DNA from: a virus
Virus record (IMG/VR): IMGVR_UViG_3300042868_005339
DNA: 64,000 nucleotides
Reading direction: 5' to 3' (one strand)
Positions 34,489 through 63,242 of this stretch are shown piece by piece. A program made the translations under genes and the position numbers. Under the pieces are notes generated by a model. It saw nothing but the letters and a program-made list of their open reading frames with translations, ran no database searches and was not told where the DNA came from. Numbering within the stretch: the stretch's first letter is position 1; each line of letters starts with the position of its first letter.

Positions 34489-34491
34489 CGA

Positions 34492-34953: not shown

Positions 34954-35155
34954 ATCACGCCCGTTTGCTATCTATGCGGCATCGCCAGCCGCCAAGATGG
35001 CAAGAGGGCGCGATTATGCGCCGAATAAACAACAAATAGAACACTATGCCAAGAGAACCCATGGAAGAAGAGACGCCAAAAACTTTGCGCCGTTTATATT
35101 TAAGCCTTCGCAAGAATGGCACAAGATTAGATCGCATAAGCTGATGGACGCCGCC

Positions 35156-35377
35156 CTAATACTCCGCCTTGCCGGACCGCTTCCTCGGCGTTCCATCCAG
35201 CGCCTTGTTCGATTTCTTTTTGATGGAGCGTCGAATGAGCGCCAGCCAGTGAGTCTGCTGCCACTCTGGAGGCTCGCGCCGACCTTGAAGCCAATCATAG
35301 GCGGTGCCACGCGGGCAACCGATGGCGGCAATGATCTCGGGGGCGGAATACTCGGCAAGCTGGTCGGCGAAGGACAT
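35156..35377 (-). CDS. Cro/YdaS-like HTH regulator on the opposite strand
   Basis: SAPEIIAAIGCPRGTAYDWLQGRREPPEWQ. Start taken at ATG 35377; the track starts at TTG 35383. Confidence 0.6.
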   Translation of the reverse strand: MSFADQLAEYSAPEIIAAIGCPRGTAYDWLQGRREPPEWQQTHWLALIRRSIKKKSNKALDGTPRKRSGKAEY

Positions 35378-35404
35378 GGGCAAACTGTATCACGGAAAAA
35401 TAAA

Positions 35405-35417
35405 TCGGCAATGCCGA
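35405..35417. promoter_or_regulatory. 13-nt palindrome TCGGCAATGCCGA (operator candidate 1)
   Basis: Perfect 6+1+6 inverted repeat, 28 nt upstream of the minus-strand HTH gene. Confidence 0.45.
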
Positions 35418-35436
35418 AAATAGTTCTGGACAAACG

Positions 35437-35449
35437 TCGGCAATGCCGA
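35437..35449. promoter_or_regulatory. 13-nt palindrome TCGGCAATGCCGA (operator candidate 2)
   Basis: Identical second copy, 32 bp centre-to-centre from the first and 13 nt upstream of ATG 35462. Confidence 0.45.
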
Positions 35450-35461
35450 CAGATTACGTGC

Positions 35462-35728
35462 ATGAGCAACGCCACACAAGCCGCCTACATCTCCGATGCC
35501 TCCGCCCTGATCGACACCGCGCATCTCTGCTGCACGACTCAGGAGCAAGCCAAGAATCTGTATCGTCACGCGATGCAAATCCTTCGGGCAATCCCGACCG
35601 CTGGTCTTCCATTCATCGAGGTGCGGTCGATCCGCAACCTGACCGGCGAGGCCGAGTCTCATCTCAACGTCATCCTCGATTCCGAGGCCGCTCAACTCAA
35701 ACCAATACCAACCGCATGGAAACGCTAG
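35462..35728 (+). CDS. hypothetical protein (first rightward gene of the switch)
   Basis: Internal ATG of the 34769-35728 track ORF. MSNATQAAYISDASALIDTAHLCCTTQEQAKNLYRHAMQIL... Confidence 0.45.
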   Translation: MSNATQAAYISDASALIDTAHLCCTTQEQAKNLYRHAMQILRAIPTAGLPFIEVRSIRNLTGEAESHLNVILDSEAAQLKPIPTAWKR

Positions 35729-35937
35729 AAGCCGCCGCCCACTGGGAAGAACTCGCCGCAAAGGAGGACCGCTGGGCGGACTTCCTAGAGTCGGGGAAAG
35801 CCACTCACACCACGGAACGCCCGGACGGAAGTCGTGGTCGTGCGCGGTCTTATCGGAACACTGCGCTGGCGATGCGCATGTCTGCGGAGACTGGTCGGCG
35901 GTATTGCTCATGCACGACGCCACCGCACGCGCTCTGA
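35716..35937 (+). CDS. hypothetical protein
   Basis: Internal ATG of the 35443-35937 track ORF. METLEAAAHWEELAAKEDRWADFLESGK... Confidence 0.4.
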   Translation: METLEAAAHWEELAAKEDRWADFLESGKATHTTERPDGSRGRARSYRNTALAMRMSAETGRRYCSCTTPPHAL

Positions 35938-35959
35938 ATGAATCGAACGAGCAATCACG

Positions 35960-36121
35960 ATGTCAGAACTTTGGAATCAGGCCACGAATCCATCTATTCT
36001 GCGGCTTGAATGTGAGCACAAACAATGCTCTCGTGTTGCGAGGGTGTGCAAGGCCACAATCAAACGCCATAATCTGCCAGTACGAGAATTGAGCAATGGA
36101 ACATTGCTTGCCATCGGATGA
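35960..36121 (+). CDS. hypothetical 53-aa protein
   Basis: Not in the track. MSELWNQATNPSILRLECEHKQCSRVARVCKATIKRHNLPVRELSNGTLLAIG. Confidence 0.4.
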   Translation: MSELWNQATNPSILRLECEHKQCSRVARVCKATIKRHNLPVRELSNGTLLAIG

Positions 36122-48073: not shown

Positions 48074-49153
48074 ATGACCACCGAAGCCCCCGACATCTTT
48101 TCTAAACGGCTTCGTCAAGCGCGAGCGATGAAGGGTTTAGCCCTGAGAGGATTAGCAGATGCGATTGGCGGAGCGGTCTCTCACACTGCTCTTGCCAAAT
48201 ATGAAGCAGGTCAGATGCAGCCAGACTCCACTGTTTTGATCAAGCTCTGTGACGCACTGGATCAGGTGCCTGATTATTTCTTCCGCCCATTCACCATCAC
48301 CCTCCAGGATGTTCGATTCAGGAAGAAGGCTTCACTTGGTGTGAAGGCTGAGCAGGCGGTTCGGGAGCGAGCCATGGAGTATTTTGAGCGCTACCATGAG
48401 ATCGAACAAATTGTGGATGCCCCCAGCAAGTTCCCTGGCCGGTTATCAGGGCCTAGCATCAAGACTCCTGAAGCCGCTGAAAAGATGGCGGATGAACTGC
48501 GCAAGGAATGGAAGCTCGGACGAGATCCACTGCCGAATGTGATCGAGCTGATCGAGTCACATGGCATCAAGGTGTTTGAACTAGCAAATGCTGACCAGGA
48601 TTTTGACGGATTCTCTGCTGAGACTGAGGCTGGCCCTGTCATCGTGCTGGCTGACTGGCTGAATGTGAACCTGCTGAGGAAGCGCATGACTGCCGTTCAT
48701 GAGCTGGCGCATCTTGTCTTGCCTCTCGCCAAGAACCTTTCCGAGAAGGAGGAGGAAGACATTGTGAAACGTTTCGCGGGTGCATTGCTCTTGCCCAAGG
48801 AGAGCTTTGAGCAGACTTTTGGAAAGCACCGGACCAGTTTGAGCCTGGGGGAGCTGATCGAGATGAAGGCTAATTTTGGTGCCTCCATCTGGGCCATCAT
48901 GATGAGAGCACGACAGCTAGGACTCATCGGCGAACAGGTGTTCTTGCGCTTCTGCCGGGAGGCGAATGCTTGGCGTGCTCAAAAACGTGAACCTGGTGAT
49001 GACCTGTATCGTGGAAACGAGAGCCACTCCCGATTCAAACAACTGGTTCATCGTGCGGTCGCCGAGGAATGCATCAGCGCATCGAAAGCTTCAAGCTTGC
49101 TCGGGCAGACCATTGGTGAGTTCCGAAAAGAGTTCCGGGAGGTGTTTTCCTGA
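48074..49153 (+). CDS. fused XRE HTH plus ImmA/IrrE (COG2856) metallopeptidase-domain protein
   Basis: LRQARAMKGLALRGLADAIGGAVSHTALAKYEAG (HTH). MTAVHELAHLVLP (HExxH). Confidence 0.75.
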   Translation: MTTEAPDIFSKRLRQARAMKGLALRGLADAIGGAVSHTALAKYEAGQMQPDSTVLIKLCDALDQVPDYFFRPFTITLQDVRFRKKASLGVKAEQAVRERAMEYFERYHEIEQIVDAPSKFPGRLSGPSIKTPEAAEKMADELRKEWKLGRDPLPNVIELIESHGIKVFELANADQDFDGFSAETEAGPVIVLADWLNVNLLRKRMTAVHELAHLVLPLAKNLSEKEEEDIVKRFAGALLLPKESFEQTFGKHRTSLSLGELIEMKANFGASIWAIMMRARQLGLIGEQVFLRFCREANAWRAQKREPGDDLYRGNESHSRFKQLVHRAVAEECISASKASSLLGQTIGEFRKEFREVFS

Positions 49154-49299: not shown

Positions 49300-49947
49300 T
49301 TACTTCATCCAACAAGGATGATCTGTCGGCCACTTTTCACGAAGCTCAGGCTCGTCCATGGCATCTTTTGGGCACCAGCACTTCATACGAAGATCGCAAC
49401 TGCAAATCTGGCACGTCTTCAACAACGGATCGCTAGGCGTATGCCGACTCGTTAAGAACTGGTTGATATGCCCAACAAGGCTACGAGTTGAGCAACTAAC
49501 ACAGAACTCCACAATTTTGTCCGTGTTCTTCGGGCAAGTTGCACAAATAGCCGCTCTTCGATTTGCTTCTTCTTGATCCACAAGCTCGCCAGCTAAGTAC
49601 GGCTTGACTGCAGAGTTGTAGAACCGCTTCATCATCTGAAACGCTCCAATTTTAGCCTCGCTATCAGGATCGCGCTCGACACACAAGTCAGGACGATGCT
49701 GGCAAAATGCTGCTTGCATGATGAGGCCAAGATTCGCTGGAATCTCAATGCCATTTCCCTCCAGGTGCTCTTGAACGGATTTCGCTAGATCACGCCATCC
49801 GTATCTAACGAATACCGTGTTTGTGGCTTCAACGTGGTAGAAGAATCCGTAGGTATCACCCGTGATAACAGACGTTGGAAATAACTCACGCAGCTTCGCG
49901 TGGTTAAATTCCTTTGGGATGGTATTTTTGCGGATGAGTTCCTGCAT
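49300..49947 (-). CDS. Cys-rich (multi-CxxC) hypothetical protein downstream of the giant gene
   Basis: ICATCPKN...FCVSCS...TCQICSCDLRMKCWCP. Confidence 0.6.
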   Translation of the reverse strand: MQELIRKNTIPKEFNHAKLRELFPTSVITGDTYGFFYHVEATNTVFVRYGWRDLAKSVQEHLEGNGIEIPANLGLIMQAAFCQHRPDLCVERDPDSEAKIGAFQMMKRFYNSAVKPYLAGELVDQEEANRRAAICATCPKNTDKIVEFCVSCSTRSLVGHINQFLTSRHTPSDPLLKTCQICSCDLRMKCWCPKDAMDEPELREKWPTDHPCWMK

Positions 49948-49948
49948 G

Positions 49949-52900
49949 TTAGCTTGCTGGTGTGTAGCCTCTATAGACCTTCTTTAGCACCCTGTCGCGC
50001 ACGTCGTCAGCTTTGTCCAACAGGAATGCTTTGGCGCGTTCTGTGGGCATCTGGAGCGCACGCTGGCCGTAGCGTAGGAGCATCTGCTTGTAACCCTTTC
50101 CTGTTTCGAGGCTGTAGTTGTCAGCTTCTTCTTGCGTGAGGGAGCGACGACGAGCGCCTTTGCCAACCATGCGGTGTTCGGCATTAGCAGGAGTCAGCCA
50201 GATTCCACGGGAAATGAGAGCGCCGAGAACCTTGTAAGCTGGATCAGTTGGTTTCACCATGAACTCGCGGCTTCCAGGATACACATTGCGTTGGATTTGC
50301 TGGCCCAAGATGTCGTAGTACTCCTTGCCTTCGTAGCGACGATAAACAGGAATGTGTGAGGCTGTCTTCTCCCACAGTGTTTCGTATTTACGCAGATTTG
50401 GATCTTGCGCGTAGTCGATGTCCTTCAGGAATCGAGGAACGAAACCGCCAGCGTAGCTCGACATCACCTTGGCAAAACGCTCCATGCGCTTCTCGTTGGG
50501 GTCTTTACTGGACAAGCTGTTGCCGAATAGCTCTTGGAACTGAGAAAGAGCAGGAATATCAGCGGCAGCAGCAGCACCAGACATTGCGGCACTTGCCATA
50601 ATTTGAACCACGTTTTTGTCGTTCCATTGGTCTGGTGAGAAGCGGATTAGATCAGCCAAGCTACCAATAGCTGCAAGCGCAGATGAAATGGGCCAGTTAG
50701 CATAACTAAATACTGTGTCATTGTATCCAATGGTGTACTCCTTCTCGCCAGCGGCTAGCTTTTGCTGCTTCTTTTCCGGTGTAAGGTTTCCCCATCCTCC
50801 GTTGATAAACAAGCCGCCTCGTTTTTCGTCATCTGGTTCTTCTGCAATAGCTTTAAGTAAGTAGTAGCCACCAACGGATAGTATCACTCCAACAAGCTGA
50901 TTGCGTTGAATTGAGTCAATGAATGCTTCTTTTCCAATGATGCGATCAGGATCAAATTCAGCCTCGAATGCACGAGCGAAACCAATGCCCGGAATGAAGC
51001 TCAGACCTTGGTTGAATTTGTTTCCAGCGAAGCGTGCGAAGCGAACACCACCAAAGTTGGCTACATTATATGCAGAGAACTGCATAAGATAGGCGAATGC
51101 CAACTCAAGTCCAGAAAGAATCCTATCGCCATTCTGTGCTGAGTCACTCCATCCGCGTTGAGCTTGCTTTAGGAATCTATCAGAACCAGCTTCAGCATTG
51201 GTCACAAGCGATCTGATCGCACGATAGCCGACACCTCCAAGTCCAGACGGTTCAAGCGTCATGGCACCTTGCATTGCCATTTGGTTAGCGTTCTCAGACA
51301 CTTTGCCAAACTTATCCAATTCCTTCATCATGTCTGCCAAAGCGTAGGAATCCACGATTGCCTTATCATGCAATGATTTTGGAGGTGTGCCACCGAAGTC
51401 TTTCTGAATAATGGCATCCTTGTAAGGCTTCAGGTCCGATTTCTTCTCAAGTGCTGCGATCTTTTCTGGATCGAGTCCAATTTGTCGGAATACGATGGAA
51501 AGCGAGCCTTCCTTGGTTAGTCCGCCATTGAACACGTCAAGAGCTTTCAGCAAACGGCTAACAGTCCGCATAAACAAGCCTGCGCTCTTAACGAGAATCT
51601 TATCAGACTTCGCCATTTGCTCTGCTAATTGGTTACTCTTGCCGATATTTGCCCACTGCATGTTCTCAGTCACATCATTCATGGATGGATCAAGAAACAC
51701 TGGATCACCCGTCACAAGGTATTGCCAAGCGATGTTGGCTTGACGACCAAAAGCACTCAATAATCGAGCTAACGTCTTGTATGCGCCAGCAAGCTCAGAT
51801 GGAAGCTGCTTTGGATTGGTAAATCCAGAGATGAACACGCGAGACAATGCCGTGGAAAGCTCGAATGCACCGCTGGCAACAGCCAAGCCGATTGAGACGA
51901 TAGTATTTGGACCAGAGAGCACACTGGAAACCCAGAAGTCAGCGATCATCTTTACCACTGGAATCTTGAGTTCGCCTTGCAACACCTCAAGTAGCTTGTA
52001 AGCAGCAACTTGGCGCTTCACAGCGTTCAAACCTTCGTCTTGAAGAACCTCGATAAGCGAATTTATCTTCTCACGCTCCGTCTCGGTGAACTCGGACTTG
52101 ATGCCAAATTTCTCAGCTATGATCTTCGCGATTTCATCGTTGTCGAAGATGCCAAGGTTGATGTCCTCAACGATACGCATGCGATTTTCCTGAAGAGCTT
52201 TAGCAGCTTTTTTGCTGAGATTACCCTTTGCCTCTTGCTCACGGATCAATCGCTCCTGCATGCTGTCGAGAATGCGTTTACGCTTGGATTCCCATGCTTC
52301 CGCGAACAAGTCTGCGAGACGTGCTTTTTGCTCTGGCGTTGCGTTCTTGAGTTCTTCGTTGGCAGAGATGGCGTCAAAGATACGCTGGCGGTATTCTTCG
52401 ACTGTCTTTGCGCTTTGCGAGAGGAGCTGACGCCAAGGGATAGGCGTCCTAAGAGGAATTTCCTCGCCACGGCGCATGTTGTTGATCTCGTTGATCATTC
52501 GTTGCAGGGCTTTGGGGCCTTGCAGAATGTTGAATGCAGCCATTGCTTCGAGATCAGTCTTTTCGCGTTCAGCAGTCTTGAATAGGCGTTCAGCCACATC
52601 AGGTGAAACATCCAATTTAGCGAGGCGTTCAGCAAACTTTGATTTCTCAACTGGATCAGAAACTTGATCCTTGAAAGCCTTGTTAATGGAGTCACCAGAC
52701 GTTGATTTGGATAGGTCTTTGGAACCTTGGCGCAACCTTTCCTCAGTAGAGTAAATAAGTCTGGATGCTTGTTTGTCGGCAATCTCAACTCGGCGCTTCT
52801 CGATTTTGAATTTCTTCATTCGAGCCAAGTCGGAACGCTCTCTGGATGCGGTTAGGAATAAGCGTTCAGAAACCTCTTCACCAACCTTGAGCGCGCCCAG

Positions 52901-55900
52901 TCGTTCTGCGAATTGCTCAAATGATACAGGGTTTTTAACCTGATCTCTAAATGCTCGAATGATGGAGTCTTTTTGCTCCTTTTTTGACATGCCTTCAGGT
53001 GGATTCTTGAATCCTTGGCGATACAATTCCTCAAAGCGATAAACAATTTGAGATGCCTTGTTTTCGGCAATCTCAATTTCGTTGGCGATCTCTTCTGCTG
53101 TTGGCTCAATAGGTTGACCTTCTGCAACACGTTTCTCCACCGTGTCGATGATCTCCTTGCGCTTCTTGCGTTTTTTCTTCTCTGTTGGCGTATCGGTTGG
53201 TGATTCCTCTCCAAGCAACTTGCCCATAATGGAGCGAAATTCAGCCAAGTCTTTTGCCTCTGCCGCATCCGCTTCCTCATCCGACATTTGCAGAATGGCG
53301 TTAAGCTCGCTTCGCTCTGCATCTGTCATGGATGCCTTGGCATTTGCTACCTTCATATCCTTGCGACGTTTGTAGAAAGCAAATCTACGAACCAGCATCT
53401 TTGCCCTTTCCCACAAGGTCTTATCTGCACCTTCAAATACCTGTTCACCTTCTTTGATTAATGCCCACTCATTATTGTTGACGACATCCTGAGCTATCTC
53501 ATCCACCGCCTGCTGATTGGCCTTATCAGAATTCTCATACGAGTTCTGCGTGAGGCTAGTCGCATTCTCGCTTCCGAAGTTGGAAATAAGGATATTTGTT
53601 CTTGCCTCCTTCATCACCTTCTCTGCGATTTCACGAATGAACATCCAGCTATAACGAGCTTTGTTCACAAGATAGCGTCGTTGCCCAAGGTGTTGACCTT
53701 TCTTGCTACCCACGCCTTGCCAGAATGCAGATAGGCGCTCGCTAAGTTTGGATAGTTGCTTCTTTCTATCTGGAGACTTCGCCTCGCGTGCAGCGTTGTC
53801 CACACGTTGACGAACTTCGATAGTGAGGGCGTCTTGGGCCATCAAGTCTTGCTCAATGCCGATGCTTTCAAGGAATGCCGGGGAGATGACTGAGTTGGCA
53901 ATATCATCAAGCGAAACGCCTTCATTCTCAAGGTTGTTGACGTATTTGATGGCATTATCGCTGTATTCTTCAGAAGATTTGATCTCGCGGTCAATTGGCT
54001 TGAAGTTTGTGAACTGAACACCTCCAAACGGAGCCTTAGTTGTGCCACTGTTGATGTCCTTAATATTCTTCGCGAACTGCTTGGTTGCAGCGTCTTCAGG
54101 ATCAATCATAGATGCCCTTGCGCCAGTCTGCTGATAAGCCATCGCCAGCATCATTTCAGTCTCGTTGATACGATTCTTGAGAATATCGCCAAACTCGCCA
54201 GCCTTTGCAGGAGCGATGGCATCACGAATCTTTTGTAGCATTTTCATCACGCGCTCAATGAAGCGGCGGAATAGCGATGCTTCCGAAACTGTTTGGTGCA
54301 TGTCTTGCTGAATCATCTGGCGCACAAACTCGGACATCACTATGCTGATGTTGCCATTTGGAGATGAAAATAGCTCATCAATGTCACTTGGAGTTGCGCC
54401 TGCACCGTAAAGTTGGCGAGATGCTTGAATCGCATCAAAAAGTATCCGTGTTGCTTTTACTGGATCATTGCTTGATGCCACAACCTCCCTCATTTCGTCC
54501 AACATGGATTTATCGCTGTCGATGGCAAATTCAGTAAACGGCTTACGCCTTCCGCTGGCAATCCATGCCTCACGTTGAACTGCAAGATCAGCCGCATGAA
54601 TCAGTTCCTCTACCAAAGCATTGCCAATAGTTTCAAAAGCACTCGCCTCATCTAGGCCGAAGCTGATTCCAGCCATCCGCTCACTAAGTTGTGCGGCATT
54701 GATGAGGATGGTTGTGGCCCCATTTTCATCCGCCATAACAGCCAGTCCACCTCCGATGTCGTTAGAAACTTCCTGAACTCTTGCTCCAATTCTGGACGCA
54801 ATTTGAGCATAATCGGCAAAAGTGTAGCCACCACTTGCCATTCCCATGTCAGGTCTGGCCCCGGCTTTCCCTTCGCGATTTTCCCCTCTTCCTGCAATTG
54901 CCTCACGATTTCTAGAAACTTCTGATTCGACTCTTTGTGCTTGTGGTATGACTCCCTGTACTCCTTCTGGAAGGCCATCGAAGAGTGGTGTCCCGCTATC
55001 AGTCTGTCCAGCCCGGCCAACTCCAGAACCTTGTCGTAAACCTCCACCAAGTCCGGCCTTTTTGCCGGTGTAATTATCCATATTGGCTTCACCAGAGCGG
55101 TCCAATTGAATTGGTAAAGGGATTCGCCCTCCATTGGATATAAAATCCCTGAGTCGAGTAAGTACTGTATCATATAATTCTTGGTTGATTCCTCCAGATG
55201 GAGCCGGATTCGCAGCAGACATACCACGAAGCATGGAAATGACATCATCCTTAGTCATGTCGGTAGGCGGCATGATAATCGCAGAGCCAGCGCGTTCGCC
55301 TTCGGTGGTGAATGTAGCAAATGGAGACTCACCTTCAATCAACAGCGCCCCACTGTCCTCATACAGCCCTTGCAGGATGCGGCTGAACTCGGTTTCCGTC
55401 AGATCAGGCATCGACTGCTTCACGATGCTGAAAAGCTCGTCTAGCGGCACCGATGGACCATTTGTCTTCGGAGCAATATCGTATGCTGCGCGAATAGTAG
55501 AACGCACTTCCTTGTCGCGTTCGTCGTAGTCAGTGTTGCGAGCTACTTCAGCGCCACTGTTGAATGCGGCATCATTAGGGGAGTCGTATTCGACTTTGGA
55601 TGCCATTGGCTGTGAGGCAGATTCCAACTCGTTCATTAGCGCGTTAACTTCGCTAATCTCGTCTTGTAAACGCTTGCCAACTTGGCCGTTTTTAGCCATT
55701 GTAAGAGCGGTTTTAAGAGCATTCGTAATATCAGTCAGCAATGCCTTCATCGCCTCAACAAAGCGCATCCATCCAGTCTCGGTGGTGAAGTCTTGACGCT
55801 TAAATTGAAGTAACTGCCTGCCAACTTCCATAGCAAAAGCTGGTGCGTTTTTAGACTGTGCTAAACTTTGAAGAATTACCTGAATGTCATTTGTTGGTGA

Positions 55901-58900
55901 CTGTGGATTATAAATATTCCACGCGGTAACAATAACATTAGCCGCTTTTACATCGCCATTTTTCAAGCCATCAGCAGCAGCTTGATACATCTCAGAAAGC
56001 ATTTCTGTGTATTGCTTTACTTCAAAATCTTCAAACTCGCCAACTGATCCATTATCCTGCCACAGCTTGTATGTATTAAGATGTTGAGCGGTGTGAATGA
56101 TCTCCTCCTGAGCCACATCATATATGAAGGCAAAGGCGGTTGTTGCGTCTGAGTTTTGCAACTGAACTAAACCTCTAGTGTCGAATCGCACTTCAATTGA
56201 GGGATTAGCTCCCGCAATGAATAAACTAGCTGGTCTGCCTTCATTTGTCCTTTTGTTGGTAATGCGAACAGGAAGTAACGTGGCATCGAAGGAATAACGC
56301 GACGAAATGGCCTCAAGTCCAAAGTCTTCCATAGCCTTCGCCCTCTGAGTTGGCGAAAGCTCATTCCAGTTTGACTCTGAAACAGCTTTTCGTATTGCCT
56401 GCGCTCTTGGAGAGTTGTCTCCTGTCGAAACTCCCTCCATGCGCTGGCTACCATATCCCTCGGATGCGTAAGGACGAACTGATGTATCATAAGTTTCATA
56501 TTTGGTTTTTCCACCATTCACCAGAATATCGGCATTCACCTTCTCCGAGTTCTTCAAGCTATTGCGAATCAAGCGTAAAACGTCCTTGTAGTCCTTCAGC
56601 GTAGGCTCGCTCGTCTTGCCAGTGATCTTCTGCCAGATGCCACGCAGGAATTGCATGAACTCTGCCAAAATGCCATCACGCGGGATTTCAACCATCGAGT
56701 CGAAGTCGCGAGTCATCGCTTCTTCAAGGATGCTGAAGTAGCTCACCTGATTCGTGCGCCAATCAGAGTATTCGCTGTAGGATTCAGCAAGCGAATCAAG
56801 CTCCTGTGGAGAGTACATCCGGCGCAGGAACGAGAAAATCTGCATCTTCTCCTTCATCGACAAGAAGAACATGCCTTTGTGGATATTCTCATGAAGAATA
56901 ACGCGACGAACCGCCGCTACTTCTGGCGTAGTGCCTTGAAGATTGGCTAGCTTGCGATCAAGATCGGATACACCTACGTTGTCCGTGAAGACAATCGGCT
57001 GTCCATTTTCAGACATGCCTTCGATTTTTGAGTTGGCGCTTACTGCTGCCCAAGTCTCAGGATAGCGAACGCGATTAGCTGGATCAGCAAGGAAGTCCTT
57101 AGATGTGCCAATCCAGGTGAATAGCACATTTGGAATCTCGCCTGAACGATTGAGAATCGCGACAGCTTGATTGGCATCGGTTGGATTAACGGTGCCTTGA
57201 ACGACGTTCGTGCGTGTTTTCTGAATGAGCGAGTTGAGCGTCTTGAGGTTTAGCTCATCGCGCTTCTTTTGTGCGGCTTCCGCCTTGGCCTGCTCCTTCT
57301 CGTCACGCTCGATTTCTTTGGCGAGCTTGGCATCGGCTGCATCACGCTTAGCTTGAGCTTCTGACGCTTCCTTATCAGCTTTGAGATAGGCTTGAACAAT
57401 CGGACGAGAGCCAACGAGTTTGGGAAATGCAGCACGAAGCACATCCATGTCTTTGCCACCGCTAGCGAAGTAGGCTTTTGCGGCAGCGATCTTTTCTGGA
57501 CTCCATTGCCTTTTGCTCTCGATCAAATCCTCTTCCAAGAACGCCATTGCGGCATCTGCAATGTCCGCTTTTTCGTTTGACTCTATGGCAGTTGTAGCAG
57601 ATTCTTGCTCAAAAGCAGGGATCGACCCCTCTGCTGGTTGTTGAACAACACTGGCTACCGCCGCTTCCTTAGCCAAGGGAGCGGCGGTTTCTGTTGGTGT
57701 GGCTACCGTTGTGGTTTGGGGGGATTCTTGAGTGGAATTGTCTTTAGTCCATGCCGCAAAGTCGTGCTCAGTCTTTGTTACTTTGAAAATGCTATCGCCA
57801 TCGCCTTTTTCGAGAACGAAATCATTGCCTCTCTTTTTTGGAATGTAGCCATCCTGCACCATTTGGGATACCACATCTGCCTTGGTACCAGAGTATATTT
57901 TCCCTGCCGACTGACTACGGCGTGAAGCTGGTTGAGACAATACGCTTACAGCTTTTTCAGCAGACACACCCTTCATTCCTAAGTCTTGAGCGAACTTTCT
58001 AGGAACCTCTTCTTGAGAGGCTTTCTTCTCGGCTTCCTGTCGCTCCTTATTCTTGAGGTCTTCGATAGATTTTGCGCGAGATTGAGAATTTTTACGTTCA
58101 ATCTCTCCAGCTTTCAATGCTTCCTCTTCCGTATCAAAAAGGTAGTCTCCAAATCCGCGTTTATTGGAAGTCTGAACTGCCCACTGTGGCTGATTGTTAA
58201 GTTTAGTCTGGTAAACAGAACCAATGCCTACCTCTTGGCCTTTTTCTGCACCACTATCTTTGGTGGTGGATGCTGCGGGTTCGGCGGCTTGTACGCTGCC
58301 TGAAGGAGTATCTTGAATTGGGGGCGCTTCATTAGTCGGCTGGAAAACGTAGAGGTCGCCTTGCTTGACGTAGCCTTGTGGAAGTTTGATGCCGTAGGTG
58401 TCAACGGCGGCGGCGGAGACTGGTTTGCTGTCACTGGTGGCTAGTAATATAAGGTGTTGATGAGTAATGCCAGCGCCCCACTTGCCCTTTGAAATCTGAG
58501 CCACCTCATACATGTCCGACAGTGGAACATTATACTTGTCTGTAATATTCCTGAATGCATCTCGATCCTTGCGAGAATCAACCCAACTATTCAGGCTTTC
58601 TTGGGCGGCATCGCGAGTCTTTTGAACATTGATCGTTACGTCGTTTGCCTTTTTTGGGAGTGTTAAAGCCTCCTCCGGCGTCATCTGCTCCGGCTTCGTC
58701 ACATCCCGCTCAATGGCGCTGCCTCCCGGCATGACCGTGCCTTCGGTAGCGGGCGTCGGCGTCCCTTGCGGGGTGATTGGTGGAGCTACTTCTTCTTGGA
58801 TTTGACCTTCTGCGGCAACTTCTTGAGGCTGGGCGTTTCCTTCACCCAGTCCTTGCAGTTCCATTTCGGGTCTTTCTTGGCGTAGCAAGCCTTCATCTGT

Positions 58901-60547
58901 GATTTGCTCTTGAATGGCATCTGGCGCTGTTTCTATGGGTTGAGGTTGAATCGCCTCACCCACCCCTGCACCTGCTTGCACAGTTGGGGGCAGCACAGAC
59001 ATTTCAGGCGCGATTTCGCCATTGGAGTCAGTGATCGTTTGTGAGAGATTTTCAGGCATCTCCATTGCTGGAGAAGGTGTTACTGCTGGAAGCTCAATTG
59101 CAGGCGCTACCTGTGGCTGCGGAGTATTAACCACGCCTTGAATGATATTGCGGGCTGCTGTCGTCGCCTGAGATACATCGGAAGACGTGTTTTCAGCCGT
59201 TGTGACGATGCTATCAGCGGTGTTTACTGCGGCAGTTAGGCCGGGTGAAATAGCAGGCTGTCCAAGTTGCGATAAACCACGAATGTTTTGCCGAGAAAAT
59301 GGAAGCTCTGTTGAGCGAATATCTTCGCGGTTGAAAGGCAACTGCGTAGGACGAATATCTTCACGGGTAAACGGAAGTTCGGAAGCTCTAATGTCTTCGC
59401 GATTGAATGGCAGATCGGTTGCTCGAATATCCTCACGGTTGAATGGAAGCGTTGTGACTACTCCATCTGTTGGCGCAGGTGCTGTGGTCGGTTCTTCTGG
59501 AACAATTTCAGTTTCAACAACCTGCTGCTCAGCCTGAGGGCGCAAGGCGCGATACCCACGATTAATAGCTGTTGGTCCAAGTCCAGCCAGGCCCGTCAAT
59601 CCAGTCATTGCTAGAGTTGTTGGGGCAACGTTTGTGATCCCTTGGGTATAATCCTGCACCGTCCTATCTGGCAAAACAACACTCTCAGGTGCTTCACCTC
59701 GAAGAACGCTTTGCTTAAATTCTTTGTTGATACGATCCTGCTCAACTGCGGTAATCGCTTCTGTGCCAACTTCACCAGCAGCAGCGCCGACACCAGCTCC
59801 CACCGCTTTAGCTCCAGTAACCTTGGATAGGGCATTGGAGGCGAGGCTCATGATGCCATTCTTACCGCCGAGAGCTTTACGAATGTATTTTCCAGCGCCT
59901 CCAAGGGCCATGTTGCCGAGAGCTTCTGGGCCAGCTTCGGCAGCGCCAAATTTGCGGGCCAATGGGAGCAATTCTTCGTATGCCTCATTTTGCTCTTCTG
60001 GAGTCAGCGGACGTTGCAGCTTCTCTTGGAAGAAATTGTCGATTCTTTCGCGGGAATCATCAAGAAATTGAGCGCCAGCCATGCGATAGGCCATCAAAAG
60101 CGATGTTCCTGCTGCTGCCGAACGTGCTGCCGCTGGACTCTTAGTAGCAAGAGCGGTTACTGCCCCTGCCGCAAGGCTTGGAACCAGTGTTGATCCAGAA
60201 AATCCAAGGCTTGGAGTCGCTTCTCGAATTGAGGATGAAACCGATGATGCATCACCTCCTGCCATAGCGGCAGCTTCGGAAGCATTAAGCTCTTCCTGAA
60301 GAGCCCGCATGTCTGCCCGACTTTGCGCGTAGCCCTCACTGCGCTGCCAAGGGTTTTCTAATCCTCCAAACGCCTGACGCATTGAAGCTGGAACGCTCGT
60401 TCCAAGAGAGGTAAAAGCCCTTCCAGTGGCAGAAAGAGTGTCAGACAGGTCGAAAAACGGCTTCTCCTCGACTTTTGGATACTTGTTCAGCCAAGATTCC
60501 TGATTAACTTTGGGATATTTTGTGAGCCAGTCTGTTTCAGAAGCCAT
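49949..60547 (-). CDS. giant 3,532-aa multi-module protein (candidate virion/ejected protein); function unknown
   Basis: Single uninterrupted ORF. HENIH at 56879-56893 plus two EExxH modules. Tandem 11-aa repeats. Coiled-coil stretches. Hydrophobic C-terminal third. Confidence 0.85.
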   Translation of the reverse strand: MASETDWLTKYPKVNQESWLNKYPKVEEKPFFDLSDTLSATGRAFTSLGTSVPASMRQAFGGLENPWQRSEGYAQSRADMRALQEELNASEAAAMAGGDASSVSSSIREATPSLGFSGSTLVPSLAAGAVTALATKSPAAARSAAAGTSLLMAYRMAGAQFLDDSRERIDNFFQEKLQRPLTPEEQNEAYEELLPLARKFGAAEAGPEALGNMALGGAGKYIRKALGGKNGIMSLASNALSKVTGAKAVGAGVGAAAGEVGTEAITAVEQDRINKEFKQSVLRGEAPESVVLPDRTVQDYTQGITNVAPTTLAMTGLTGLAGLGPTAINRGYRALRPQAEQQVVETEIVPEEPTTAPAPTDGVVTTLPFNREDIRATDLPFNREDIRASELPFTREDIRPTQLPFNREDIRSTELPFSRQNIRGLSQLGQPAISPGLTAAVNTADSIVTTAENTSSDVSQATTAARNIIQGVVNTPQPQVAPAIELPAVTPSPAMEMPENLSQTITDSNGEIAPEMSVLPPTVQAGAGVGEAIQPQPIETAPDAIQEQITDEGLLRQERPEMELQGLGEGNAQPQEVAAEGQIQEEVAPPITPQGTPTPATEGTVMPGGSAIERDVTKPEQMTPEEALTLPKKANDVTINVQKTRDAAQESLNSWVDSRKDRDAFRNITDKYNVPLSDMYEVAQISKGKWGAGITHQHLILLATSDSKPVSAAAVDTYGIKLPQGYVKQGDLYVFQPTNEAPPIQDTPSGSVQAAEPAASTTKDSGAEKGQEVGIGSVYQTKLNNQPQWAVQTSNKRGFGDYLFDTEEEALKAGEIERKNSQSRAKSIEDLKNKERQEAEKKASQEEVPRKFAQDLGMKGVSAEKAVSVLSQPASRRSQSAGKIYSGTKADVVSQMVQDGYIPKKRGNDFVLEKGDGDSIFKVTKTEHDFAAWTKDNSTQESPQTTTVATPTETAAPLAKEAAVASVVQQPAEGSIPAFEQESATTAIESNEKADIADAAMAFLEEDLIESKRQWSPEKIAAAKAYFASGGKDMDVLRAAFPKLVGSRPIVQAYLKADKEASEAQAKRDAADAKLAKEIERDEKEQAKAEAAQKKRDELNLKTLNSLIQKTRTNVVQGTVNPTDANQAVAILNRSGEIPNVLFTWIGTSKDFLADPANRVRYPETWAAVSANSKIEGMSENGQPIVFTDNVGVSDLDRKLANLQGTTPEVAAVRRVILHENIHKGMFFLSMKEKMQIFSFLRRMYSPQELDSLAESYSEYSDWRTNQVSYFSILEEAMTRDFDSMVEIPRDGILAEFMQFLRGIWQKITGKTSEPTLKDYKDVLRLIRNSLKNSEKVNADILVNGGKTKYETYDTSVRPYASEGYGSQRMEGVSTGDNSPRAQAIRKAVSESNWNELSPTQRAKAMEDFGLEAISSRYSFDATLLPVRITNKRTNEGRPASLFIAGANPSIEVRFDTRGLVQLQNSDATTAFAFIYDVAQEEIIHTAQHLNTYKLWQDNGSVGEFEDFEVKQYTEMLSEMYQAAADGLKNGDVKAANVIVTAWNIYNPQSPTNDIQVILQSLAQSKNAPAFAMEVGRQLLQFKRQDFTTETGWMRFVEAMKALLTDITNALKTALTMAKNGQVGKRLQDEISEVNALMNELESASQPMASKVEYDSPNDAAFNSGAEVARNTDYDERDKEVRSTIRAAYDIAPKTNGPSVPLDELFSIVKQSMPDLTETEFSRILQGLYEDSGALLIEGESPFATFTTEGERAGSAIIMPPTDMTKDDVISMLRGMSAANPAPSGGINQELYDTVLTRLRDFISNGGRIPLPIQLDRSGEANMDNYTGKKAGLGGGLRQGSGVGRAGQTDSGTPLFDGLPEGVQGVIPQAQRVESEVSRNREAIAGRGENREGKAGARPDMGMASGGYTFADYAQIASRIGARVQEVSNDIGGGLAVMADENGATTILINAAQLSERMAGISFGLDEASAFETIGNALVEELIHAADLAVQREAWIASGRRKPFTEFAIDSDKSMLDEMREVVASSNDPVKATRILFDAIQASRQLYGAGATPSDIDELFSSPNGNISIVMSEFVRQMIQQDMHQTVSEASLFRRFIERVMKMLQKIRDAIAPAKAGEFGDILKNRINETEMMLAMAYQQTGARASMIDPEDAATKQFAKNIKDINSGTTKAPFGGVQFTNFKPIDREIKSSEEYSDNAIKYVNNLENEGVSLDDIANSVISPAFLESIGIEQDLMAQDALTIEVRQRVDNAAREAKSPDRKKQLSKLSERLSAFWQGVGSKKGQHLGQRRYLVNKARYSWMFIREIAEKVMKEARTNILISNFGSENATSLTQNSYENSDKANQQAVDEIAQDVVNNNEWALIKEGEQVFEGADKTLWERAKMLVRRFAFYKRRKDMKVANAKASMTDAERSELNAILQMSDEEADAAEAKDLAEFRSIMGKLLGEESPTDTPTEKKKRKKRKEIIDTVEKRVAEGQPIEPTAEEIANEIEIAENKASQIVYRFEELYRQGFKNPPEGMSKKEQKDSIIRAFRDQVKNPVSFEQFAERLGALKVGEEVSERLFLTASRERSDLARMKKFKIEKRRVEIADKQASRLIYSTEERLRQGSKDLSKSTSGDSINKAFKDQVSDPVEKSKFAERLAKLDVSPDVAERLFKTAEREKTDLEAMAAFNILQGPKALQRMINEINNMRRGEEIPLRTPIPWRQLLSQSAKTVEEYRQRIFDAISANEELKNATPEQKARLADLFAEAWESKRKRILDSMQERLIREQEAKGNLSKKAAKALQENRMRIVEDINLGIFDNDEIAKIIAEKFGIKSEFTETEREKINSLIEVLQDEGLNAVKRQVAAYKLLEVLQGELKIPVVKMIADFWVSSVLSGPNTIVSIGLAVASGAFELSTALSRVFISGFTNPKQLPSELAGAYKTLARLLSAFGRQANIAWQYLVTGDPVFLDPSMNDVTENMQWANIGKSNQLAEQMAKSDKILVKSAGLFMRTVSRLLKALDVFNGGLTKEGSLSIVFRQIGLDPEKIAALEKKSDLKPYKDAIIQKDFGGTPPKSLHDKAIVDSYALADMMKELDKFGKVSENANQMAMQGAMTLEPSGLGGVGYRAIRSLVTNAEAGSDRFLKQAQRGWSDSAQNGDRILSGLELAFAYLMQFSAYNVANFGGVRFARFAGNKFNQGLSFIPGIGFARAFEAEFDPDRIIGKEAFIDSIQRNQLVGVILSVGGYYLLKAIAEEPDDEKRGGLFINGGWGNLTPEKKQQKLAAGEKEYTIGYNDTVFSYANWPISSALAAIGSLADLIRFSPDQWNDKNVVQIMASAAMSGAAAAADIPALSQFQELFGNSLSSKDPNEKRMERFAKVMSSYAGGFVPRFLKDIDYAQDPNLRKYETLWEKTASHIPVYRRYEGKEYYDILGQQIQRNVYPGSREFMVKPTDPAYKVLGALISRGIWLTPANAEHRMVGKGARRRSLTQEEADNYSLETGKGYKQMLLRYGQRALQMPTERAKAFLLDKADDVRDRVLKKVYRGYTPAS
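59276..59449 (-). repeat. five tandem 33-nt (11-aa) repeats LPFNREDIR-x-T-x inside the giant ORF
   Basis: LPFNREDIRATD / LPFNREDIRASE / LPFTREDIRPTQ / LPFNREDIRSTE / LPFSRQNIRGLS. Copies differ at synonymous sites. Confidence 0.9.
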
Positions 60548-60555: not shown

Positions 60556-62256
60556 TTATTTTCGCCGAACTTCGCCATCCGACCCTCTAAATTTAGTCCC
60601 CTTTGGCAAAGCATCAACTTCTTCTTCGGTTGAAATTTCTACAATGGATTCTTGAGCGGGCTGTGGCGATTGAGATGGTGATCTTGATTTTTTTTCGTCA
60701 ATATATGATTCGAATACATCGTTCCATGTTTTTCCGCTAGATAATCCAAGATCGTAAGCATTTGGAAGTTTTTTCAACGGCTCAAAGGATGGAATCTTAT
60801 TCCTCCAATCAACTTTGGATAGAGCCTTGAAGATATTACGCGTCGCAACCTCATTAGACCGAACATTTCCGTATTTAGCTACGATTTCAGGTCCAACTTT
60901 GTCGCCTGACAATACTTCATTCTTAATGAGAGAATTAAGCAATGTATCTGTGGTCATGTTTAGTTTTTTTGCGACCTCTTTGACCTTGGAGTCCATTACT
61001 GACTTGACATTATCCCATACAGGATTCGCAACTGATCTATCTTTCTCCATGGAGAATTGTATCTCTGCATCTTTGAGATTATTCTCAAGTTTCTCAGCGT
61101 ATTGCAAGCCCTCAGTAAAATCTGCAAATGTTTTAGGCTTTGGATTATTCACATAATCACGAAGATTGCTTAGAGCTTTCTCTTTAACTTTAAGTGAAAC
61201 ATTCGGATCTGAAATAGCAGCCATATAAGTATTCTCATCCGCAGAAGGATCATTGATCCCTTGCAAAACCTCAGACTCATCAACCTTGAGAATATTTTCA
61301 GCTTTTGGCGCGGCCAAATCCTTCATGGTTTGCCGGAATGGCGCTGCGGCCTTAGGTGCCTCTGGTGGCCTAAATGGAATTACAGTACCATCCTTAGTTG
61401 CGGCAACAGGAGTTTGCGCTGGACTGTATATGCCTCGGTATGATCCGCGCAATTCGTTGAACAAACGATCATACTCCTCTACCAGCTTATCGAATTTTGG
61501 ATTTGGTATTTCTGCGCCATCTTTGTCGTAAAGAACGCTTTTCCCTAATTTCTCCATCTTGTCGATCTCAGAACTAACAAGTTCAAAATCCTTTTGCTTC
61601 GCTTGACCAGCAACATCTTTAGCGCCACCGCGAGTTCCAACAGCCTCCCTTGCCGCTTTTCTCATCTGTCCCTCAAGATATTTAGCCTGCTGAACTGATT
61701 TGATGGACGGAACCAAGTTGGCATCTCCGCCATATTCAAGGAATCCTCCAATGGCTGTTTGCAATTCCTCATTCGCCTTCGCAGCAGCAGCGCGTTCAGC
61801 ATCCATCTGTTGCTTGCGAGCAGCTTGATAATTCTGATTCTGAGCGGCATACAGTCCAGCTACGTCGCTAAACCGAGGATCACTAAATGCTAGAGGGTTG
61901 CGAGTCGCAAGATCGCGGTATTTAGCTCCGAAGTCCTCGCTCTCAGGATTCAAATTACCACCTGCCAATTCGTTCGCTGCACGCTCTACCTGCGCCTCTA
62001 TCTCCTGCTTCATGCGCAAGTCTCTAGCGTCCTGCGCCACCTTGTCGTAGGCTATTTGAGCTTTTTGAGCTTCAAATACTGGAGCTTGGCGTTGAAGACT
62101 GCGAAGTTGATCTATTGCGGCAGCACCTTTGTAGAAATCTTCAACCTCACGATCAAGTGATGCCACGCCGGTAGATTTCCGAGTTTGGTTAAAAACTGGA
62201 TTGGCGGGTGCCTGAGCAGGCATTCCAAGGTAGTCGGCAAGGTCAATGACTGGCAT
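60556..62256 (-). CDS. hypothetical virion/internal protein (coiled-coil rich)
   Basis: 566-aa ORF, 8 nt upstream of the giant gene. Confidence 0.6.
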   Translation of the reverse strand: MPVIDLADYLGMPAQAPANPVFNQTRKSTGVASLDREVEDFYKGAAAIDQLRSLQRQAPVFEAQKAQIAYDKVAQDARDLRMKQEIEAQVERAANELAGGNLNPESEDFGAKYRDLATRNPLAFSDPRFSDVAGLYAAQNQNYQAARKQQMDAERAAAAKANEELQTAIGGFLEYGGDANLVPSIKSVQQAKYLEGQMRKAAREAVGTRGGAKDVAGQAKQKDFELVSSEIDKMEKLGKSVLYDKDGAEIPNPKFDKLVEEYDRLFNELRGSYRGIYSPAQTPVAATKDGTVIPFRPPEAPKAAAPFRQTMKDLAAPKAENILKVDESEVLQGINDPSADENTYMAAISDPNVSLKVKEKALSNLRDYVNNPKPKTFADFTEGLQYAEKLENNLKDAEIQFSMEKDRSVANPVWDNVKSVMDSKVKEVAKKLNMTTDTLLNSLIKNEVLSGDKVGPEIVAKYGNVRSNEVATRNIFKALSKVDWRNKIPSFEPLKKLPNAYDLGLSSGKTWNDVFESYIDEKKSRSPSQSPQPAQESIVEISTEEEVDALPKGTKFRGSDGEVRRK

Positions 62257-62259: not shown

Positions 62260-62877
62260 TTAAGCGGCTTTTTTCTTCTTTTCCTTTTCTCCACCTTTTT
62301 TAATAGCGGCCAAAACTCGCTCTTTATCAGCACGCGCATATTTATTGTCCACCCCTTGGCGAGCAGCAGCTTGACCGAAGAATTGCTCCTTGGACATGCC
62401 ATCGAATGTGGCTGGTTTTCCAGTGCTGGCAGTTGCTGTTCCGGTTCCGTAGCGGCTGGTAACAACGCGCTCTTGCGGGCCATAGGAGGCAATGACTCCG
62501 CCTGTTGGGCGCTGTTGAAGCTGAGTTGGCGTTGGTCTGGATGATGGCATTGGAAGATTTCCAGCTACTAGCATGCGCTTTGTGAGTTCCAAATCTGCCG
62601 CTTCTGGATTTGCAGGCACATACGAACGCACGCCTTGTTCCTCCTGCTCACGCATTCTCATTCGAGCAGCGCCACCAGCATTCCTCAACCTCTCGCGAGC
62701 GGCTTGTAGAAGCTGATCGGCGGTTGAGATTTGCGGCCTTGTATTGACAAAAATGGACTGGAAATTAGGCGTGAGTCTGGATGCTCCACCTAAAGATTCA
62801 TAAGTGTTTCCAGTGTATGGATTGCTCGTTGCATTGAATGTCGGTGATTCTCTGTCACCAGTGATTGTGGTAGCCAT
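62260..62877 (-). CDS. hypothetical protein
   Basis: 205-aa ORF, Gly/Pro/Arg-rich with a Lys-rich C-terminus. Confidence 0.6.
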   Translation of the reverse strand: MATTITGDRESPTFNATSNPYTGNTYESLGGASRLTPNFQSIFVNTRPQISTADQLLQAARERLRNAGGAARMRMREQEEQGVRSYVPANPEAADLELTKRMLVAGNLPMPSSRPTPTQLQQRPTGGVIASYGPQERVVTSRYGTGTATASTGKPATFDGMSKEQFFGQAAARQGVDNKYARADKERVLAAIKKGGEKEKKKKAA

Positions 62878-62882
62878 GTTTT

Positions 62883-63242
62883 TTAGCGGTAAATAGTGAT
62901 TAATCCTGGATTCATCGCTCCAAAAACTGAATTGCGAGACATCTTTTGAGGCTGAGAGATTCCTTCAGACTGCATGTTAGATTGAGCAAATGGAGAAAGT
63001 GCTTGGTCAAGTTGACGCGATTTTAAGCGAAGCTCTCGCTCAGCGATGCGGTCAGGAGAGTTACGAGAGCGTCCAACTGGCGTTGAGCGTTGCAGCGATG
63101 GTGGCAGCAGCTCATTGTAATTTTGCTGCATGTTTGCCAACTCACCCTTACTAGCTTGTCCTGTATTGAAACTGTATGCTGATGGAAGAGTTTGCTTCTT
63201 CTTGAAATCATTAAGACCTGATCTGAGTGGTTCGTATGCCAT
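62883..63242 (-). CDS. hypothetical protein
   Basis: 119-aa ORF. Confidence 0.55.
   Translation of the reverse strand: MAYEPLRSGLNDFKKKQTLPSAYSFNTGQASKGELANMQQNYNELLPPSLQRSTPVGRSRNSPDRIAERELRLKSRQLDQALSPFAQSNMQSEGISQPQKMSRNSVFGAMNPGLITIYR

Follow-up and report, generated by a model that had tools for sequence, protein, structure and literature searches.

A giant cysteine-free mosaic protein of an uncultivated phage: a probable polyvalent ejection protein with an IVP-D-like C-terminal domain

Introduction

Homologues of IVP-D (internal virion protein D) host domains destined for the cytoplasm of the infected cell, such as the virion RNA polymerase (vRNAP) of phage N4 and the methylase of gp60 of Pseudomonas phage H66 (PMC4819975). 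For T7 gp16, it has been proposed that hydrophobic helices, buried before ejection, become inserted into the inner membrane once ejection has taken place (PMC8954989, in which the T7 gp16 structure 7EYB is cited). In the study of polyvalent proteins by Iyer et al. (2017; PMC5512222), a word search found neither gp16 nor internal virion proteins nor ejection. Here we report on a giant open reading frame (ORF) in a 64,000-nucleotide stretch of viral DNA (IMG/VR record IMGVR_UViG_3300042868_005339), the whole of which is referred to below as the window. The ORF probably encodes a giant polyvalent ejection protein of an uncultivated phage of ~63 kb, in which an IVP-D-like anchor is combined with shuffled cargo modules.

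Results

A C-terminal domain related to gp16-class proteins

The giant ORF lies on the minus strand (49949..60547), starts with ATG and encodes a protein of 3,532 residues, in agreement with the original prediction, made from the letters of the window, of a single 10.6-kb minus-strand ORF. The probability that 3,532 codons are free of stops by chance is ~1e-74. The constant, family-defining part of the protein is its C-terminal domain (aa ~2680-3532; 49952..52510, minus strand). When 1.84 billion representative proteins were searched with its profile, 493 clusters matched at E<=1e-3, of which 191 reached E<=1e-30. Among the 150 best matches, which are proteins of 1,100-4,584 aa, the domain nearly always stops within a few residues of the C-terminus, and the most distant cluster members have only the last ~360 aa in common. 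The AlphaFold2 (AF2) model of the domain, based on a 46-sequence alignment, is almost purely helical, with a mean predicted local distance difference test score (pLDDT) of 80.9 and a predicted template modelling score of 0.75. The C-terminal ~650 aa had been expected to contain several membrane-inserting segments; the two quoted as examples lie at aa 2868 and 3218. Two transmembrane-like hydrophobic segments are indeed present (2868-2907 and 3216-3237, with Kyte-Doolittle 19-residue maxima of 1.65 and 1.49, respectively), in addition to weaker ones, and the two peaks are similar in magnitude to those of T7 gp16. However, AF2 sets both segments as helices within a confident globular helical domain, and the region as a whole is a large helical domain of the IVP-D-like kind.

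Foldseek of the domain model against BFVD gave 35 matches at E<=1e-3, 34 of them with a probability of 1.00, and TM-scores of up to 0.52. The matches include proteins named 'Internal virion protein' of Synechococcus phages S-CBP2 and S-CBP3 and of Pelagibacter phage Eyrgjafa, a protein of cyanophage NATL2A-133, and C-terminal chunks of ART-PolyVal-like, LPD, MuF-C and PolyVal ADP-ribosyltransferase proteins of uncultured phages. The S-CBP2 protein ORF41 (773 aa) is encoded directly before the tail fiber gene, which is the position of T7 gp16. Its relatives found by tblastn are Syn5 gp45, the P60 internal virion protein and P-SSP7 gene 16 ('T7-like internal core protein'), together with proteins annotated as 'internal virion protein D' in roseophages, pelagiphages and a Desulfovibrio phage; the four relatives that were examined match ORF41 in their C-terminal half.

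Profile comparison with hhalign gave the same picture. The family profile matched S-CBP2 ORF41 with a probability of 77%, P-SSP7 gp16 alone with 95.7%, and the CRP-114 IVP-D with 92.3%. With an alignment of the S-CBP2, Syn5, P-SSP7, CRP-114 and S-TIP28 proteins, the probability rose to 99.1% (P 9e-19, 640 columns), and the controls (gp15-class proteins, tail fibers and T7 gp15) stayed below 1%. A relationship to S-CBP2 ORF39/40 was considered and rejected. Sequence and profile searches of the PDB with the C-terminal domain found nothing significant, and tblastn of GenBank phages with the family consensus of the C-terminal subdomain found no match. These structural and profile comparisons led us to conclude that, as judged at the level of sequence profiles, the C-terminal domain shares homology with the gp16-position proteins of marine T7-like phages, over the last two-thirds of these proteins. 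The protein had been said to fit no described family, which holds for every profile library; remote homology nevertheless places its anchor domain. P-SSP7 gp16 is treated as an IVP-D homologue by Hardies et al. (PMC4819975) and T7 gp16 itself is dissimilar, so that the anchor joins the extended IVP-D family only transitively.

A family of mosaic giant proteins

A word-indexed search with the last 866 aa found three close metagenomic fragments, and a scan of IMG/VR found 31 loci at 46-96% identity to the same C-terminal 866 aa, on contigs of up to 62-67 kb. Uninterrupted full-length homologues of 2,695-3,819 aa are carried by at least 12 of the 31 loci, and for that reason the giant ORF is not the artefact of a single assembly. 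One further homologue runs off its contig at >4,190 aa. In one relative (L001/L012 2-7514), two overlapping frames of 1,529 and 1,115 aa take the place of a single giant ORF. The split may be a frameshift or sequencing error, or the gene may be genuinely divided, like that of the gp16-position protein of S-CBP2 (ORF40 + ORF41).

BLAST comparisons showed that the C-terminal ~850 aa are common to all full-length homologues. Several internal blocks recur in combinations that differ from contig to contig, and the N-termini are of several types. The similarity to the window protein breaks at aa ~349, 942, 1349, 1650, 1787, 2140, 2481 and 2680, and several of these breakpoints coincide with linkers that AF2 models with low confidence or as disordered (1334-1378, 1647-1653 and 1763-1908). 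Iterated hidden Markov model (HMM) searches within the family, for which 152 family representatives plus the window protein were used and to which the module counts below refer, distinguished at least eight separately conserved modules (the N-terminal region, A, L, B/C, E, D, R and the C-terminal domain), each with its own distribution.

Polyvalent domains in the variable regions of relatives

The variable regions of 12 close and 14 distant members of the family were scanned with Pfam. LPD23 was found in five close and five distant members and ART-PolyVal in five and six, respectively. Further domains were YkuD, methyltransferase, ResIII/SNF2/Helicase_C, Eco57I/N6_Mtase, GNAT and DUF6782, as well as the Strawberry-notch-type pair AAA_34 + Helicase_C_4. 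A repertoire of this kind defines polyvalent proteins (PMC5512222). In the relatives, LPD23 comes immediately after module A and ART-PolyVal lies before module E or D, indicating that their enzymes fill the slots occupied by L, B, M and C in the window protein. The comparison with polyvalent-protein domains that had been proposed for the window protein thus located the hallmark domains in the variable parts of its relatives; the Pfam PolyVal and LPD models gave no match with the window protein itself. Since the equivalent slots in relatives hold ADP-ribosyltransferase (ART), helicase, methylase, acetyltransferase and L,D-transpeptidase domains, we regard the gene as one that probably encodes a polyvalent effector-delivery protein.

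Avoidance of cysteine

None of the 3,532 residues of the giant protein is cysteine, against 1.2% in 20 other ORFs of the window (P ~1e-18). The avoidance extends over the family: 106 of its 118 giants (>1,500 aa) are Cys-free, with a mean cysteine content of 0.01%. Known or presumed ejection proteins are Cys-free too, namely T7 gp15 and gp16, N4 gp50, gp51 and gp52, and the marine phage proteins S-CBP2 ORF39-41, Syn5 gp44 and gp45, P-SSP7 gp15 and gp16, and CRP-114 gp39 and gp40. Cysteine is present in tail tube proteins, tail fibers and neighbouring proteins of the compared phages. The three ORFs directly upstream of the giant gene (566, 205 and 119 aa) are Cys-free as well. A word search of a review of ejection proteins found no mention of cysteine. 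The lack of cysteine would fit an unfolded passage through a tail channel of ~35 Å and an oxidising periplasm.

Elsewhere in the window, a 386-aa ORF (19000-20160, minus strand) is also Cys-free and has weak PHROG matches (Gp5.9-like, 0.0036; major head protein, 0.19). A further internal or ejected protein is one possibility for it, and a scaffold another.

Internal modules of the window protein

The original prediction saw three modules sharing a hydrophobic core around [H/E]ExxH. All three motifs are present (VILHENIH from aa 1216, VAQEEIIH from aa 1478 and ALVEELIH from aa 1977), and only the first is a full HExxH signature, as had been predicted. However, a common core holds for the second and third alone, since the all-against-all comparison of the modules suggested at the time found no relation in sequence between the first module, A, and the other two, B and C (hhalign probability ~1%). 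B and C are paralogues with 30% identity (E 2e-6), and a single HMM finds both.

Module A (aa 1064-1346; 56509..57358, minus strand) is a putative zincin-like metallopeptidase with HENIH at aa 1219-1223 (nt 56879-56893). It occurs as one copy in all 16 homologues that span the region, the window protein included, and in 36 of the 152 representatives. In an alignment of whole proteins that was inspected module by module, all 34 diverse sequences have E1176, D1197, R1215, H1219, E1220, H1223, Y1257, E1276 and G1310. The AF2 model (pLDDT 80-95) shows three short strands followed by the HExxH helix (q119-133) and an EE helix (q178-194), and the order of strand, HExxH helix and Glu helix is the one described for zincin-like metallopeptidases (PMC5512222). 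In the model of module A, the candidate third-ligand Glu (E1276) lies on a later helix than HExxH, after a small β-sheet. The conserved residues and the predicted fold suggest a putative metallopeptidase-like module. Homology of module A to the C1 domain of N4 gp50 or to module E was rejected by hhalign.

Module B, the first EExxH copy, spans aa 1463-1639 (55631..56161, minus strand), and module C, the second, spans aa 1966-2135 (54143..54652, minus strand). AF2 models B (pLDDT 55-80) as a β-hairpin followed by a long helix bearing EExxH, and C likewise, with low confidence. The B/C family includes ten other sequences, and two copies are found only in the window protein. Eleven of the 12 aligned copies have EExxH and none has HExxH. 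Module B is preceded by module L (aa 1354-1460; 56168..56488, minus strand), a rare accessory segment of low AF2 confidence that occurs in three other representatives. Between B and C lie module E and segment M. The latter (aa 1790-1965; 54653..55180, minus strand) is rich in Gly, Arg and Ala and is predicted to be largely disordered (pLDDT 24-50).

Module E (aa 1653-1755; 55283..55591, minus strand) is a small helical domain of wide conservation, with high AF2 confidence (pLDDT 86-97). It is found in 39 family representatives, often directly after module A. In the PDB profile search, its profile gave a marginal match to the EF-hand pair of caltractin/centrin (E 0.009). As separate observations, two BFVD matches of the C-terminal model come from proteins named 'EF-hand domain-containing', and the composite AF2 model gave weak Fur/PerR-like Foldseek matches.

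Module D (aa 2140-2485; 53093..54130, minus strand) is a conserved domain with invariant columns that occurs in 62 sequences. It is followed by two tandem repeats of ~90 aa, R1 (aa 2491-2580) and R2 (aa 2587-2672; 52532..53077 for both, minus strand), which are 49% identical (E 7e-23). The searched set contains 90 R copies in 49 sequences, the window protein included. The duplicated domain and the complete absence of cysteine were both additions to the features listed in the original prediction.

N-terminal region, repeats and linkers

Most of the remaining sequence features had been read correctly from the translation. The N-terminal region (aa 1-350; 59498..60547, minus strand) begins with a duplicated motif (aa 7-26), in which WLTKYPKV starts at aa 7 and WLNKYPKV at aa 19, and continues with the expected Ala/Gly-rich stretch (aa ~100-330), which is mildly hydrophobic with peaks at 112-139 and 307-328. 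Its residues 149-235 matched another N-terminal type of the giant family with an hhalign probability of 90%. A homology of the region to the N-terminal domain of N4 gp50 was rejected, as the profile comparison gave only noise. Next come five tandem repeats, LPF(N/T/S)R(E/Q)(D/N)IRxxx, at aa 367-426 (59270..59449, minus strand). The number of copies was as predicted, but the period is 12 aa and not 11, as shown by the spacing of LPF at 367, 379, 391, 403 and 415. Tandem Repeats Finder detected no DNA-level tandem repeat in the giant ORF; the 12-aa repeats were missed because they are too diverged at the DNA level.

The part after the repeats (aa 427-1063; 57359..59269, minus strand) is made up of variable linkers rich in P, Q, T and E and of segments with little conservation, and it is mosaic between homologues. 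The Pro/Gln/Glu/Thr linkers of the original prediction were recovered as P/Q/T/S-rich regions at aa ~400-600, 700-800 and 900-1000, and its long charged stretches as K/E/R/D-rich sequence at aa 1001-1100 and 2401-2800. A motif search of the giant protein likewise agreed that Walker A, DxDGD and R-x3-K-x7-YG are absent. With the whole protein, phmmer against PDB sequences gave nothing significant, and megablast and tblastn (with both protein halves) against 50,697 GenBank phage records gave no match. An RmlD_sub_bind match (E 0.0095, below the cut-off) that arose among the giant protein and its neighbours was dismissed as noise.

Genomic context

The window consists of a plus-strand block of replication and regulation genes (a primase-helicase and an HTH-M78 regulator) and a long minus-strand block, of which the giant gene is the penultimate gene, after the three Cys-free ORFs. 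The genes on either side are those that had been predicted: a same-strand run of 239, 119, 205 and 566 aa upstream, and a Cys-rich ORF of 215 aa just past the giant stop. The 566-aa ORF (60556..62256, minus strand) keeps its place immediately upstream of the giant gene in related loci. Judged only by position and composition, it is a candidate companion ejection protein, and the 205-aa and 119-aa ORFs (62260..63242, minus strand) are candidate small ejection proteins. The 215-aa ORF (49300..49947, minus strand) follows after a 1-nt spacer and contains 12 cysteines (5.6%), arranged in CxxC, CxxC, CxxCxC and CxC clusters. It gave no match in Pfam, PHROG or NCBIfam. In most related loci, the most distant included, it lies directly after the giant gene, within a few nucleotides, and is thus a conserved partner of that gene, contrasting in its cysteine content with the Cys-free giant.

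No tail tube, portal or fiber gene is recognisable in the window. The minus-strand ORFs of 602, 840, 392, 386, 758, 348, 566, 282 and 242 aa (6182-25590 and 326-1902) gave no usable structural match. The unrecognisable structural genes suggest a deep-branching phage lineage. In a distant relative, the giant gene comes after genes for DUF5907 and Laminin_G_3 proteins, which we take to be tail-fiber-like, and after ORFs of 322 and 705 aa, and it faces an integrase-RecT-DnaB block on the other strand.

Some side observations were made in the same genomes. A regulator with HTH_3 and Peptidase_M78 domains (ImmA/IrrE-type; 48074-49153, plus strand) adjoins the giant-gene block, and a phage integrase is found in the equivalent region of a distant relative (L042 21633-22727). 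On these grounds parts of the phage group may be temperate, yet the scan of bacterial and archaeal genomes described below found no relative. In a 661-aa ORF (9940-11925, minus strand), aa 16-190 match an exonuclease-like PHROG and aa 412-461 match LAGLIDADG_3, and one stretch is P-loop-like. An intein or homing endonuclease may interrupt this gene; Intein_splicing is found in a 757-aa ORF of a relative (L003). The GC content peaks at 0.563 in 34001-36000, compared to ~0.47 elsewhere, with a strong positive AT skew, at the start of the plus-strand block.

Discussion

The domains of the relatives, the gp16-class anchor and the absence of any RNA polymerase motif or match support the reading put forward in the original prediction, namely a packaged and ejected polyvalent protein that is not a vRNAP. 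We consider this reading, with an IVP-D-like anchor and exchangeable cargo, to be the probable one. The C-terminal module would dock the giant protein into the internal core of the capsid, and, in the manner proposed for N4 gp50 (PMC13434306), the chain would pass along the tail like beads on a string. After ejection, the anchor may refold at the inner membrane in the manner of T7 gp16, using its buried hydrophobic helices (PMC8954989). The ~2,650 aa of cargo before the anchor comprise the N-terminal region, A, B/C, E, D and the duplicated R, joined by low-complexity linkers; these N-terminal modules would act on targets in the host cell at the start of infection. Module A may process the chain, a function that Iyer et al. 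suggested for metallopeptidase domains, and the cargo modules may be exchanged by recombination at the linkers.

Several findings weigh against this reading. The giant protein and its close relatives are known here from their genes alone. No Pfam, PHROG or NCBIfam model matches the giant protein, which has no recognised enzymatic domain. The link of the anchor to T7 is indirect: Foldseek of the C-terminal model against the PDB reached E 0.15 at best and returned no T7 gp16 entry, hhalign with T7 gp16 gave 0.1% and hmmsearch nothing, the C2 domain of N4 gp50 gave 0.1-0.2% both as a single sequence and as a 21-sequence profile, and P-SSP7 gp16 was itself first assigned 'by synteny and size'. The 566-aa and 205-aa ORFs show no homology to gp14/gp15-class proteins or to N4 gp51/gp52. 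Portal, capsid, tail and terminase genes are unrecognisable in the window with Pfam, PHROG and relaxed scans (E<=1), and for this reason the label of a late structural operon rests on strand, gene order and one distant relative. The exact combination of modules is reproduced in no other contig. Module A, for its part, was not recognised by Pfam, apart from LPD22 at E 0.03 in one homologue; PDB profiles gave nothing, and Foldseek against the PDB gave only noise for the module within the composite AF2 model with its disordered linkers. In addition, 20 of 33 module A homologues have HExxxH (HESLVH, HEVGGH and HEAFAH) and 13 have HExxH. Such an alternation within one homologous family is unusual for zincins, although HExxGH of the DPP III type provides a precedent. 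The missing matches in Pfam, the PDB and Foldseek and the frequency of HExxxH are the reasons why we grade module A as putative.

The readings that compete with a packaged polyvalent protein differ in which of these findings they explain. An N4-type vRNAP, transcribing the early genes after ejection, would account for the size class (3,532 against 3,500 aa, a likeness rightly noted in the original prediction), for the lack of cysteine in both proteins, for the place of both at the end of a same-strand block after two or three Cys-free proteins, and for an HExxH module before a large helical C-terminal domain, which resembles C1 and C2 of N4 (PMC13434306). However, the R-x3-K-x7-YG and DxDGD motifs are absent, Pfam, PHROG, NCBIfam and PDB sequences provide no match, tblastn against all GenBank phages, Schitoviridae included, found nothing, and HMM and hhalign comparisons with the N-terminal domain, C1, C2 and the C2 family profile of N4 gp50 were all at noise. 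An RNA polymerase match, named beforehand as the result that would overturn the original prediction, was therefore found neither by motifs nor in the libraries, by tblastn or with the N4 gp50 profiles, and this alternative is close to refuted. The opposite extreme is a purely structural, core- or scaffold-like protein whose N-terminal 2,650 aa, lacking any effector function, serve as a non-enzymatic spacer or DNA-organising material that fills the capsid or sets a length. The window protein has no recognised catalytic domain, much of it is low-complexity, charged helical sequence, and B and C lack a full HExxH, all of which a filler would explain. It would not explain why the HExxH...E residues of module A are invariant across 34 diverse sequences, why conservation of modules A, D, E and R extends so far among relatives, or why relatives place bona fide enzymes in the same region, and we consider a mere filler unlikely.

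The protein might instead stay outside the virion, as a polyvalent protein for anti-defence or host takeover that is made after infection and active only in the cytoplasm, or that is delivered by another route. The polyvalent-domain repertoire of the relatives is compatible with this possibility, presence in the virion is deduced from genes alone, and the structural genes of the phage are unrecognised. However, the domain that defines the family is homologous to internal virion and core proteins, the gene stands at the end of a long block opposite the replication genes, and the family-wide avoidance of cysteine, which is common to proven ejection proteins, would be left without an explanation; a non-packaged protein is thus rather improbable, if the least improbable of the competing readings. 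An error of origin is a further alternative, in which the ORF is an assembly chimera of the giant genes of co-occurring strains, or a mis-binned bacterial gene for a secreted giant toxin or adhesin. The best matches do differ by segment, being locus L006 for aa 1-349 and 942-1349, L016/L026 for 1041-1787 and L021 for 1745-3532, and a strain-level chimera is conceivable because the exact module combination is unique to the window. In contrast, full-length homologues without interruption and with a common overall order are present on at least 12 independent contigs, no break in frame occurs over 10.6 kb, genes for phage replication lie nearby (the primase-helicase, and RecT and PDDEXK in relatives), the contigs cluster at 56-67 kb, and a scan for two conserved motifs in 185,579 species genomes of bacteria and archaea found no relative. 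Chimerism or mis-binning is accordingly very unlikely.

The wider family invites a broader reading, which we put forward tentatively as one that may well prove wrong. The unnamed IVP-D-like family of ~800 aa (at least 493 clusters at 50% identity) could be a general platform for effector delivery, on which cargo is swapped at disordered linkers much as in polymorphic toxins. It would then be a third type of polyvalent anchor beside MuF/portal fusions and the N4 vRNAP, avoidance of cysteine would mark proteins that are threaded through the tail, and the modules of the window protein (HExxH/HExxxH, EExxH, D, E and R) would all be new families. If a packaged and ejected polyvalent protein is the right reading, a clade of uncultivated phages of ~60-65 kb, whose structural genes have diverged beyond the reach of current profile libraries, would spend a sixth of its genome on one ejected protein, and the IVP-D scaffold would routinely carry interchangeable enzymes for host conditioning or anti-defence. 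Structural work on the podovirus ejectosome and the comparative genomics of polyvalent proteins, which have so far been largely separate, would be joined. The combination of giant size, lack of cysteine and a conserved C-terminal anchor would be a computable marker for injected effectors in viral dark matter, and modules A, B/C, D, E and R would be candidates for new activities in early infection. No concept would be overturned, as N4 gp50 and H66 gp60 have already shown that IVP-D-type proteins carry cytoplasmic cargo.

Among known systems, the gp16-position proteins of marine T7-like phages (P-SSP7 gp16, Syn5 gp45, S-CBP2 ORF41 and CRP-114 gp40) come closest in the anchor. The C-terminal ~800 aa of the window protein are homologous to them (Foldseek E 1e-10 to 1e-9), and in both cases the domain is all-helical and Cys-free and lies at the C-terminal end. 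In contrast, these proteins have 773-1,415 aa compared to 3,532, their N-terminal parts are unrelated to modules A, E, D and R, their genes are followed by a tail fiber gene and not by a Cys-rich 215-aa ORF, and the window phage has no recognisable T7-like structural genes. T7 gp16 itself is helical and Cys-free, with an N-terminal lytic transglycosylase before its core/ejection module, but it has no direct similarity to the giant protein and is linked to it through the marine proteins. N4 gp50 resembles the giant protein in architecture, being a Cys-free beads-on-a-string protein of ~3,500 aa whose gene is the last large one in the late block and follows those of two Cys-free ejection proteins; the N4 order gp52, gp51, gp50 parallels the window in order and sizes. 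N4 gp50 also has an HExxH domain and a large helical C-terminal domain needed for encapsidation (PMC13434306; PMC5512222). The window protein differs in having no RNA polymerase and other cargo modules, and no part of it is similar to N4 gp50 in sequence or profile.

H66 gp60, which we compared by description only, is likewise an IVP-D-type anchor carrying an intracellular domain, an S-adenosylmethionine-dependent methylase (PMC4819975). Methylase domains are present in some of the window protein's relatives as well. The window protein itself exceeds gp60 in size and consists of many modules, of which none is recognised as a methylase. With polyvalent proteins such as P1 DarB and MuF-fused effectors (PMC5512222), the giant protein shares unrelated modules in one chain, a phage late-gene context and an HExxH module as a recurring hub, and its relatives add ART-PolyVal, LPD23, SNF2 + methylase and GNAT. 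The packaging exemplars in that study are MuF, portal fusions and the N4 vRNAP; the anchor of the window protein is IVP-D-like and absent from Pfam. The design principle has therefore been published already, for N4 gp50, for H66 gp60 (Hardies et al., 2016) and for polyvalent proteins (Iyer et al., 2017). What is new is a large unannotated family, whose anchor domain has no model in any library and which carries a set of new modules; the explicit link of polyvalent proteins to a gp16-class anchor; and the alternation of HExxH and HExxxH in module A, together with the Cys-free signature.

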